Shown here: piece by piece, positions 15,398-16,379 of the stretch
Layout of the letters: each line of letters begins with the position of its first letter
Numbering within the stretch: the stretch's first letter is position 1
Source: Thermoplasmata archaeon
GTDB taxonomy: Archaea > Thermoplasmatota > Penumbrarchaeia > JAEHCK01 > GCA-020356005
Assembly (NCBI GenBank): GCA_020356005.1
Contig: CP070629.1
Coordinates: forward strand, 2,992,765-3,044,488
Reading direction: 5' to 3'
DNA: 51,724 nt
Program-made: the position numbers and the translations under genes
Notes under the pieces: generated by a model
The model's database searches: none
Seen by the model: only the letters and a program-made list of their open reading frames with translations
Told to the model about the DNA's origin: nothing

Positions 15398-15688
15398 ATG
15401 AATGTAGGTATTACAGAGCGAATAAAAAGTAAATTTAGGGAACAGTCGTTAACAGTAGGTAGAAGAATCGACCTATATTTAACGAAAAATATGCCGGATT
15501 TGATACTTAAATATGATCTGGCCACAAAAAAAGATCTGATCGAAATCGATCGACAGATAGAGGGCTATGAAAGTACATTGGACAATCTGGACCGATGGAG
15601 AGATGACACAAGGGACAGGATGAAAAAAGCTGCAGATCGTGTGGGCAGGCTTGAGATGAAATATGGGGTCAGCAAGGGGGGTAAATAA
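15398..15688 (+). CDS. Small coiled-coil protein B1 (paralog family B)
   Basis: SD AGGGGGTGG. It shares the motif block RRIDLYLTKNMPDLILKYDLATKKDLIEIDRQIEG with B2 and B3, and the rest has heptad-like charged/hydrophobic periodicity. Confidence 0.65.
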   Translation: MNVGITERIKSKFREQSLTVGRRIDLYLTKNMPDLILKYDLATKKDLIEIDRQIEGYESTLDNLDRWRDDTRDRMKKAADRVGRLEMKYGVSKGGK

Positions 15689-16023
15689 TGAGTGCAGCTG
15701 GTGATGTTGCAAGCACAATATTTTTCGTCGTTGTTGTTCTCTTACTTATCGGTGCACTGATATGGCTGTTCTTATACGTATGGCGAAAGCTACGAGAACG
15801 AGGTGTTCGTCATGTTGAACTTTATTTTGACGAACATTTCAGAGATATAGTAAAAGAGTGGGATTTGGTAACAACGCCAAGTATGAAAGATTGGACAAAA
15901 GACATGTCCAAGCGGCTTGATTACGTGGGCAAAGATATCGATAAGATGATGGATTTCAAAAAATCCTTCGATACCAGGCTGAACAAACTGGAATCCGAAC
16001 TGGATAGTCTGGAGGTCTCGTAG
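15688..16023 (+). CDS. Small TM + coiled-coil protein B2 (paralog family B)
   Basis: The ATG overlaps the B1 stop (TAATG). N-terminal TM helix IFFVVVVLLLIGALIWLFLYVW. The motif block reads RHVELYFDEHFRDIVKEWDLVTTPSMKDW. Confidence 0.65.
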   Translation: MSAAGDVASTIFFVVVVLLLIGALIWLFLYVWRKLRERGVRHVELYFDEHFRDIVKEWDLVTTPSMKDWTKDMSKRLDYVGKDIDKMMDFKKSFDTRLNKLESELDSLEVS

Positions 16024-16034
16024 GAGAGACAGGG

Positions 16035-16379
16035 GTGATGCAAATGGAAGAGGAAATGGAAGCAGAAAGACCTTCGTTTTTTGCACGAATCAAGGCTTAC
16101 TTATCCGGAGCGGAGAAGGAGAAAGATGAGGCAACATACCAGCGCAAACTTCTCGATGGTAGAATCGAGAAATATTTAGATCGCCATGCGAACGAATACA
16201 TCGAGGAATTTGGATTGGTAACCAGCGTTGATCTTCAGGTATACGAAGAACGTTGTGAGGATTTGACCATGAGATTAGAGAGTTTACAGGAATTTGCGAA
16301 AACTTCGGATGCTGAATTATCAGATCTTGAGCGAAGGGTGACGGCCATAAAGTCTGCAAGGAAGAGAAAACATAAGTAA
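16035..16379 (+). CDS. Small coiled-coil protein B3 (paralog family B)
   Basis: The motif block reads GRIEKYLDRHANEYIEEFGLVTSVDLQVYEERCEDL, followed by the coiled coil RLESLQEFAKTSDAELSDLERRV. Confidence 0.65.
   Translation: MMQMEEEMEAERPSFFARIKAYLSGAEKEKDEATYQRKLLDGRIEKYLDRHANEYIEEFGLVTSVDLQVYEERCEDLTMRLESLQEFAKTSDAELSDLERRVTAIKSARKRKHK

Follow-up and report, generated by a model that had tools for sequence, protein, structure and literature searches.

Three tandem archaeal paralogs that share a beta-layer motif and may assemble into a membrane-anchored heterotrimeric coiled coil

Beta-layers are three-residue strands that interrupt trimeric coiled coils and follow the consensus [aliphatic]-A-T-K-[polar]-[D/E], in which the third strand residue (b3) N-caps the next helix, the acidic residue at position g (D/E) pairs with the basic residue at position e (K/R) of the neighbouring chain, and the downstream heptad register begins at e; all known examples occur in homotrimers (Hartmann 2016, PMC4786415). 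They have been described in the Tcar0761/DUF3782 group (5APZ), and the same motif begins the membrane-anchored trimeric stalks of MCUR1 and CCDC90B (DUF1640; PMC4786415). In this report we describe three tandem genes, designated B1, B2 and B3, on a 51,724-nucleotide stretch of DNA (the window; contig CP070629.1 of assembly GCA_020356005.1) from an uncultured Thermoplasmatota archaeon. The small helical products of these genes share a motif that, in sequence profiles and structural models, matches the beta-layer N-capping signature of trimeric coiled coils. With a probability that we place at roughly 60%, B1, B2 and B3 form a parallel 1:1:1 heterotrimeric coiled coil that is anchored in the membrane.

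The B proteins resemble the Tcar0761/DUF3782 group in that the same motif breaks the heptads and the register restarts at e. The known members of that group, however, are one-chain homotrimers, often with many tandem beta-layers, whereas each B chain contains a single beta-layer and the strands seem to be supplied by three diverged paralogs with complementary charges at e and g. DUF1640 proteins are homotrimers in which every chain has a head domain at its N-terminus and a transmembrane (TM) helix at its C-terminus. In the B triplet, by contrast, the TM helix is N-terminal and belongs to one of the three chains, the 'heads' are separate proteins and the sequences show no significant match. Neither the DUF1640/CCDC90-like family (PF07798) nor DUF3782 matched the window proteins or 20 B1 and 20 B3 orthologs, and one distant B-family protein, P0156, gave a faint CCDC90-like match (E 0.066). 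Scans of nine cluster proteins and of the same 40 orthologs against Pfam and NCBIfam returned no family for B1-B3, and no description of the B family or its gene cluster was found in a literature search that did not include the paper defining Prok-RING (Burroughs, Iyer and Aravind 2011). The beta-layer motif itself is known; the B family, the cluster as a whole and the heteromeric, three-paralog version of the motif appear to be undescribed.

The positions of the three genes are given in Table 1. The B1 stop codon TAA shares one base with the B2 start ATG (TAATG), and G-rich motifs resembling Shine-Dalgarno (SD) sequences lie upstream of each of the three starts. Both features point to coupled expression, which had been proposed in a sequence-only reading of the window. 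B3 probably starts at ATG 16044 rather than at the GTG further upstream, because an SD-like GGGGTGA (16031-16037) precedes that ATG and the database copy of the protein has 111 residues. In B1, an amphipathic segment at the N-terminus and a short helix precede the beta-layer motif, which is followed by a long heptad helix and, at the C-terminus, a conserved K-Y-G. B2 alone has a TM helix, at approximately residues 10-32, followed by a basic linker (RKLRERG), the motif H-x-E-L-Y-F-D-E-x-F-R-x-I-x-x-E-W-D, the beta-layer and a long helix with a single 4-residue insertion that is absent from B1 and B3. In B3, an acidic N-terminus and an amphipathic FFARIKAYL segment precede the motif Y-x-R-x-x-x-D-G-R-I-E-K-Y-L-D, the beta-layer, the long helix and a Lys-rich tail. 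The amphipathic starts of B1 (G-I-x-E-R-I-x-A-Y) and B3 (F-F-A-R-I-K-x-x-F) are conserved. Within the long C-terminal helices of the three proteins, 79-85% of the a and d positions are hydrophobic, against 12-21% of the remaining positions, and in none of the three did any of 500 shuffles match the heptad pattern (0/500). The coiled coils, the stop/start overlap and the restriction of the TM helix to B2, all noted in that earlier reading, are thus borne out.

The same reading had held that the three proteins are paralogs. Single-sequence BLASTP offers a weak signal for this relationship (E 7e-4 for B1/B2 and 7e-6 for B2/B3, with no match between B1 and B3). Profiles were therefore compared by hhalign, each built from 20 orthologs taken from related genomes and designated A1, A2 and A3 for B1, B2 and B3, respectively. 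The resulting probabilities were 94% for A1/A2 (E 1.2e-7), 97% for A1/A3 (E 1.1e-11) and 93% for A2/A3 (E 3.8e-7), and all three alignments were centred on the shared motif that had first drawn attention to the triplet. As a control, each B profile was searched against all 17,378 open reading frames (ORFs) of its own 3.58-Mb genome, where every profile placed its own protein at rank 1. The B1 and B3 profiles placed the other two paralogs at ranks 2-3 (E 1e-6 to 7e-4), with no ORF outside the triplet below E 0.02; the B2 profile was weaker, recovering B1 at 0.0099 and B3 at 0.034 behind an unrelated ORF at 0.0064. TMCC, a coiled-coil protein encoded in the same operon, reached a mere 3% hhalign probability against a merged B profile. 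This genome-wide ranking, together with the TMCC control, indicates that the similarity exceeds the generic likeness of coiled coils. In a maximum-likelihood tree, 93 B proteins separate into three clades (support 99 for B1, 96 for B2 and 95 for B3) to each of which every module supplies one member, so that the triplication is older than the spread of these lineages. On the evidence of these profiles and this tree, B1, B2 and B3 are true, ancient paralogs. TMCC and two other proteins of the cluster, ZnR and the RING protein, were considered as a fourth B paralog and rejected, all scoring below 30% hhalign probability.

The motif on which the alignments converge is most readily recognized in B1, whose consensus [LIV]-A-[DT]-[KR]-x-D fits the published beta-layer consensus almost perfectly. 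Among 29 B1 sequences, b2 is A in 28, b3 is D or T in 23, e is K or R in 26 and g is D or E in all 29. The fit is partial for B3 (V-T-x-x-D) and for B2, in which [VMT]-[TS]-R-x-[RK] ends in a basic g. The best register for B1 and B3 assigns position e to the residue that directly follows b3 and position a to the first hydrophobic one (0/500 shuffles as good). For B2 the register begins at e only when the 4-residue insertion is read by hand; the best automated register began at a. The top match of the B1 profile in the PDB is 5apz_A, a GCN4-Tcar0761-GCN4 construct (E 0.0049), aligned on its MATKDD, while the merged B profile matches mainly trimeric coiled coils (P22 gp26, reovirus sigma-1, SadA, Tcar0761 and HA2).

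Structural models agree with this interpretation. For B3 alone, AlphaFold2 predicts a short helix at the N-terminus and two further helices, of 18 and then 50 residues, on either side of a turn at L-V-T, with a predicted local distance difference test (pLDDT) score of 75 and a predicted template modelling score (pTM) of 0.38. A locus in the Thermoplasmatota metagenome-assembled genome (MAG) BLK5-1.bin.203 (L035:5377-6348) permits all three chains to be modelled together, as its B1, B2 and B3 lie in one frame with nothing but TAA stops and a 15-nt spacer between them; with TAA read as Q, a fusion of 324 residues results, which was modelled with an alignment of 48 rows that includes other natural two-gene read-throughs as paired rows. 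The fusion model reached a pTM of 0.67, with pLDDT values of 90-98 in the helical cores. Its only non-helical secondary structure, as assigned by DSSP, consists of beta-bridges at L41/Q43, M153/T155 and I270/T272, which are b1 and b3 of all three motifs. There being no other strands in the model, the bridges of the three motifs can only pair together. Foldseek searches of the B3 and fusion models against the PDB returned nothing significant, helical rods being uninformative in such comparisons.

A merged B profile was used to search 301 Thermoplasmatota genomes. The family was found in 28 of these, 26 of which possess exactly 3, 6 or 9 copies. The MAGs that contain the related loci carry the labels Thermoplasmatota, Thermoplasmata or ex4484_6. 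Within the host's class, which includes the nearest relatives of the window, modules are nearly universal at 1-3 copies per genome, and B3 is present in 30 of 33 genomes. Each of the 28 complete modules that were examined has its three genes side by side as B1-B2-B3; homologs therefore do occur as triplets in a fixed context. An exhaustive profile search located distant homologs of 74 amino acids (aa) in Methanofastidiosia and on other contigs, where the operon order is N1-TMCC-B-B-B(TM)-RING and, again, one of three B paralogs has a TM helix; these Methanofastidiosia-type modules are without a PRC barrel. The 1:1:1 gene ratio, the fixed order and the coupling thus hold across two phyla. In one genome (G030:C464, L066:1325-2303 and 5568-6546), two complete triplets with identical scores lie 3.3 kb apart (4.2 kb between their starts), with PRC, TMCC, ZnR and N1 genes between them as read from the sequence; the arrangement suggests either that the entire module was recently duplicated in tandem or that the assembly contains a repeat.

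We favour the heterotrimer because pairing of charges at e and g, the 1:1:1 gene ratio, the fixed order and the coupling all point towards it. When the charges of g in one chain and e in the next were scored, the cyclic order B1>B2>B3 received 1.96 of a possible 3 and the reverse order 0.32, and B1>B2>B3 was the better order in 22 of the 28 modules and the worse in none. The contacts predicted in this cycle are D-R, K/R-E/G and D-K. Homotrimers of B2, with its basic g, would be repulsive (-0.61), and those of B3, in which e is mostly G or E, would be neutral. The hetero-oligomer of fixed stoichiometry suggested in the sequence-only reading is, on these sequence and model data, the most likely arrangement.

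In the assembly that we envisage, operon coupling would supply equal amounts of the three chains, which would combine into one parallel rod at the cytoplasmic side of the membrane, and the complementary e/g charges of the beta-layer would set the cyclic order. Each chain would contribute two helices, first a short one and then one of approximately 45-50 residues, with a three-residue strand between them; the strand would correspond to the (L/I)-(A/V)-(T/D) portion of the shared motif, followed by K/R at e, position f and D at g, and would N-cap the long helix. The TM helix of B2 would anchor the rod, while B1 and B3 probably rest on the membrane with their amphipathic N-termini. B2 is predicted to be oriented N-out/C-in, placing the rod in the cytoplasm, since its N-terminal stub is short and a basic linker follows the TM helix (positive-inside rule). 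With some 70 residues, the rod would measure roughly 10 nm. It may form the core of a complex with an N1-type barrel and the double PRC-barrel protein, for which the K-Y-G end of B1 and the Lys-rich tail of B3 are candidate binding sites at the distal end, and which TMCC, ZnR and Prok-RING_2 might join in cis or from a second operon.

Several observations weigh against the heterotrimer. The canonical consensus is well satisfied by B1 only, B2 having a basic g and B3 a non-basic e; we read these deviations as heteromeric complementarity, but weaker or different packing is also conceivable. The insertion in the long helix of B2 has no counterpart in B1 or B3. The charge statistic counts related sequences and not independent events, and B1, at +0.89, is compatible with a homotrimer. 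The fusion model is of a single chain with a shallow, partly paired alignment, so that packing between chains is deduced from pTM and the DSSP bridges. In addition, some family members are atypical: a lone B1-like gene beside TMCC-ZnR (L078:2373-3477, G007:C64); a 225-aa B3-like protein encoded 2.5 kb from a Cdc48 gene (L031:8752-9429); and a 194-aa protein that combines a TM helix, a Gly/Met-rich linker and a B domain and whose gene adjoins a 153-aa ORF (L091:3264-3848).

Some of these points would suit three separate homotrimers, one membrane-bound and two soluble or peripheral, that serve related but distinct partners. The homotrimeric nature of all known beta-layers (PMC4786415) and the self-compatible e and g positions of B1 speak for such an arrangement. 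It is nonetheless unlikely, given the self-repulsion of B2 and the neutrality of B3, the strict ratio, order and coupling retained across two phyla, and the rise in pTM from 0.38 to 0.67 upon fusion, in a model where the three motifs pair together.

Table 1. Features of the B1-B3 locus, in window coordinates (lengths in amino acids)
Feature	Position	Strand	Profile match or relationship
Prok-RING_2 protein, 147 aa, 8-Cys binuclear treble clef	13303..13746	-	PF14445 1.8e-13
N1, stand-alone Cdc48-N-like barrel (putative double-psi fold), 118 aa	14993..15349	+	CDC48_N 1.1e-7
B1, soluble paralog, 96 aa	15398..15688	+	
B1 beta-layer motif, LATKKD, residues 41-46	15518..15535	+	
B2, paralog with N-terminal TM helix, 111 aa	15688..16023	+	
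B2 beta-layer, LVTTPS, residues 60-65	15865..15882	+	
B3, paralog, 114 aa from GTG 16035 or 111 aa from ATG 16044	16035..16379	+	
B3 beta-layer, LVTSVD, residues 61-66	16215..16232	+	
Double PRC-barrel protein, 159 aa	16434..16913	+	PRC 1.2e-10, 2 stretches
TMCC, N-terminal TM helix and coiled coil, 139 aa	16992..17411	+	
ZnR, helical, C-terminal CxxC...CxxC zinc ribbon, 117 aa	17428..17781	+	
N2, second Cdc48-N-like barrel, 88 aa	18011..18277	+	paralog of N1, E 3e-17
Membrane-anchored single-ring AAA ATPase, 393 aa	18305..19486	+	

The genes surrounding the triplet fall into a core and a set of accessories. The module begins with N1, which adjoins the triplet in the great majority of the module loci examined. 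Against CDC48_N (PF02359) it scores 32.3 bits, just under the cut-off of 35.1, and covers 80 of the 85 profile positions; N2 scores 22 bits. The PRC gene lies 3' of B3 or 5' of N1 in the Thermoplasmatota modules examined, except at the incomplete locus L078. TMCC, ZnR and Prok-RING_2 are accessory components, encoded in or beside the module in this window and in several lineages. The RING gene, divergently transcribed in the window, is linked to the module in several lineages that include Methanofastidiosia; across 37 genomes, 27 have both the RING gene and the module, four the module only, one the RING gene only and five neither. Some lineages have the TMCC gene within the module. In one family (f9) it belongs to a separate operon: there the module is reduced to five genes in 1-3 copies and the accessory genes form a single-copy operon, TMCC-ZnR-TMCC-RING. 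This operon is tightly packed (L093:4079-6569, L094:4144-6537, L097, L098 and L100). At L094 the operon overlaps by 4 nt with the gene that comes next, which encodes a 267-aa protein with two winged-helix domains (HTH_24 and HVO_0163-like), and L093 has a 261-aa gene at the matching position. Two Lrp/AsnC regulators (13794-14279 and 14322-14780) are encoded in the window between the RING gene and N1.

The earlier reading had placed the triplet next to an AAA+ ATPase and viewed the pair as a scaffold with its disassemblase. The AAA gene is in fact 1.9 kb downstream, beyond four intervening genes. N2 ends 27 nt upstream of it, and the two probably form a transcription unit of their own, since a 229-nt gap precedes N2. 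The ATPase is TM-anchored, has no N-domain of its own and resembles Cdc48-D2, Vps4 and FtsH; it scores higher as Cdc48 than as CdvC, under the cut-off for both. These properties lend some appeal to a coiled-coil polymer that is remodelled by the membrane AAA protein with the barrels as adaptors, all the more so as N2 is a paralog of N1 and many archaeal PRC-barrel genes neighbour Cdc48 genes (bioRxiv 10.1101/2023.03.28.534520).

This proposal is, however, rather improbable, and as a general rule it fails. Adjacency to an AAA gene is confined to this genome and was seen at none of the 30 other module loci, the nearest case being the Cdc48 gene at L031, 2.5 kb away on the opposite strand. Orthologs of the TM-AAA protein (families f3, f5, f7 and f8) are encoded on other contigs without module genes nearby; full-length versions with 53-63% identity occur at L084-L088 (G005, G008, G012, G014 and G010) and two more, with 47% and 59%, in G007 and G002, and none lies beside a gene for a Cdc48-N-like barrel. 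A TM-AAA ortholog is missing from family f9, which has 1-3 modules, while G002 has the ATPase and no module. Nothing, moreover, points to polymerization beyond the trimer. The split arrangement of N-domain and AAA protein seems to be lineage-specific, and a link between the ATPase and the module may exist in this lineage without being a property of the system.

If the heterotrimer is correct, our guess is that it tethers or organizes barrel proteins at the membrane. The cluster unites a Cdc48-N-like barrel, PRC barrels, a RING finger, a Zn ribbon and TM coiled coils. Cell division is the only role that has been shown experimentally for archaeal PRC barrels, and PRC-barrel genes beside Cdc48 genes, as well as duplicated PRC barrels, have been noted (bioRxiv 10.1101/2023.03.28.534520). 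One candidate role, which we consider doubtful, is that of a PRC-barrel tether in cell division or envelope organization. Another, for which we would claim no better odds, is that of a membrane platform displaying the Cdc48-N-type barrel and the RING finger as an adaptor for Cdc48-type ATPases. In a more novel reading, the rod might be the stalk of an undescribed machine that holds the barrels and a RING/Zn-ribbon sub-complex approximately 10 nm off the membrane, either as a ubiquitin-independent forerunner of the quality control of membrane proteins by RING and Cdc48, similar to endoplasmic reticulum-associated degradation, or as a new kind of PRC-based tether for division or the envelope; we regard this as possible but doubtful.

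Among systems known to divide archaeal cells, CdpB1-3 and CdvA are like the module in combining PRC barrels with coiled-coil and membrane-binding parts (bioRxiv 10.1101/2023.03.28.534520). CdvA, however, joins its barrel to a helical part in one chain that recruits ESCRT-III, whereas the PRC protein of the window is barrel-only; CdpB acts through SepF, which the B module does not replace; and the distant B modules have no PRC barrel. A CdvA-type division system was rejected, as the PRC protein is barrel-only, the host genome has no Snf7 (ESCRT-III) match and the AAA protein falls below the CdvC cut-off. The host genome (G000), a single 3.58-Mb contig that is 78% 'complete', has four genes of the FtsZ/tubulin family and no SepF match at E<=0.001. 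Nearly all of its relatives have one SepF, and the idea that the module substitutes for SepF was rejected, SepF being present in nearly all module-bearing relatives. At one locus (L075, G114:C9), the single SepF gene of the genome (24409-24630) lies about 5 kb downstream of a B module.

Were the heterotrimer to be confirmed, it would be the first natural heterotrimeric beta-layer coiled coil, and three paralogs with order-setting charges would provide a model for how heterotrimeric coiled coils are specified, which should be useful to protein designers. Since Cdc48-N-type, RING and PRC-barrel domains have central roles in the protein quality control of eukaryotes and in the division of archaea, learning the function of the complex could also open a testable link to either process.

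A resemblance to phasin and UbiK had been noticed from the sequence, and it stands as far as the helix/beta-layer/helix motif is concerned, but not as family membership. UbiK/BMFP (E. coli YqiC) is likewise a helical protein of approximately 100 aa in which a helix, L-V-S-R-E-E and a long helix follow one another, and it has been reported as a trimer or as UbiK2:UbiJ1. It aligns with the B family in register on LDLVSREEF, with an hhalign probability of 17.8% over 28 columns. Pfam Phasin (PF05597) matches B3 weakly (E 0.006) and 4 of 20 orthologs, and a distant locus has apolipoprotein-like repeats on its N1 protein. That the B proteins are granule- or lipid-associated phasins or accessory factors of quinone biosynthesis is nevertheless very improbable: the Phasin score of B3 is 17.1 bits against a cut-off of 28.8, B1 and B2 have no Phasin match, BMFP (PF04380) gives none at E<=1, the taxon and genomic context differ from those of UbiK, no polyhydroxyalkanoate or ubiquinone genes occur in any annotated neighbourhood, and the shared piece is the generic helix/beta-layer/helix motif. 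The weak BLASTP scores and weak XhlA and LysB-like matches might suggest that small coiled-coil ORFs of unrelated origin resemble one another by chance, or that the genes form a cassette for phage lysis or defence, but both ideas are hardly credible beside the profile comparisons and genome-wide controls, the occurrence in 30 of the 33 genomes sampled from the class, and annotated flanks that consist of housekeeping genes (lysyl-tRNA synthetase, cyclophilin, geranylgeranyl reductase) or surface genes, with no phage genes among them.

The barrel proteins of two distant modules (L069:4362-5309 and L070:4724-5257) consist of a Cdc48-N-like barrel with a long tail. The tail at L069 has Pfam matches to apolipoprotein/ApoLp-III-like families and contains a TrkA_C domain; that at L070 is composed, as judged by eye, of Gly/Ala/Lys-rich repeats.

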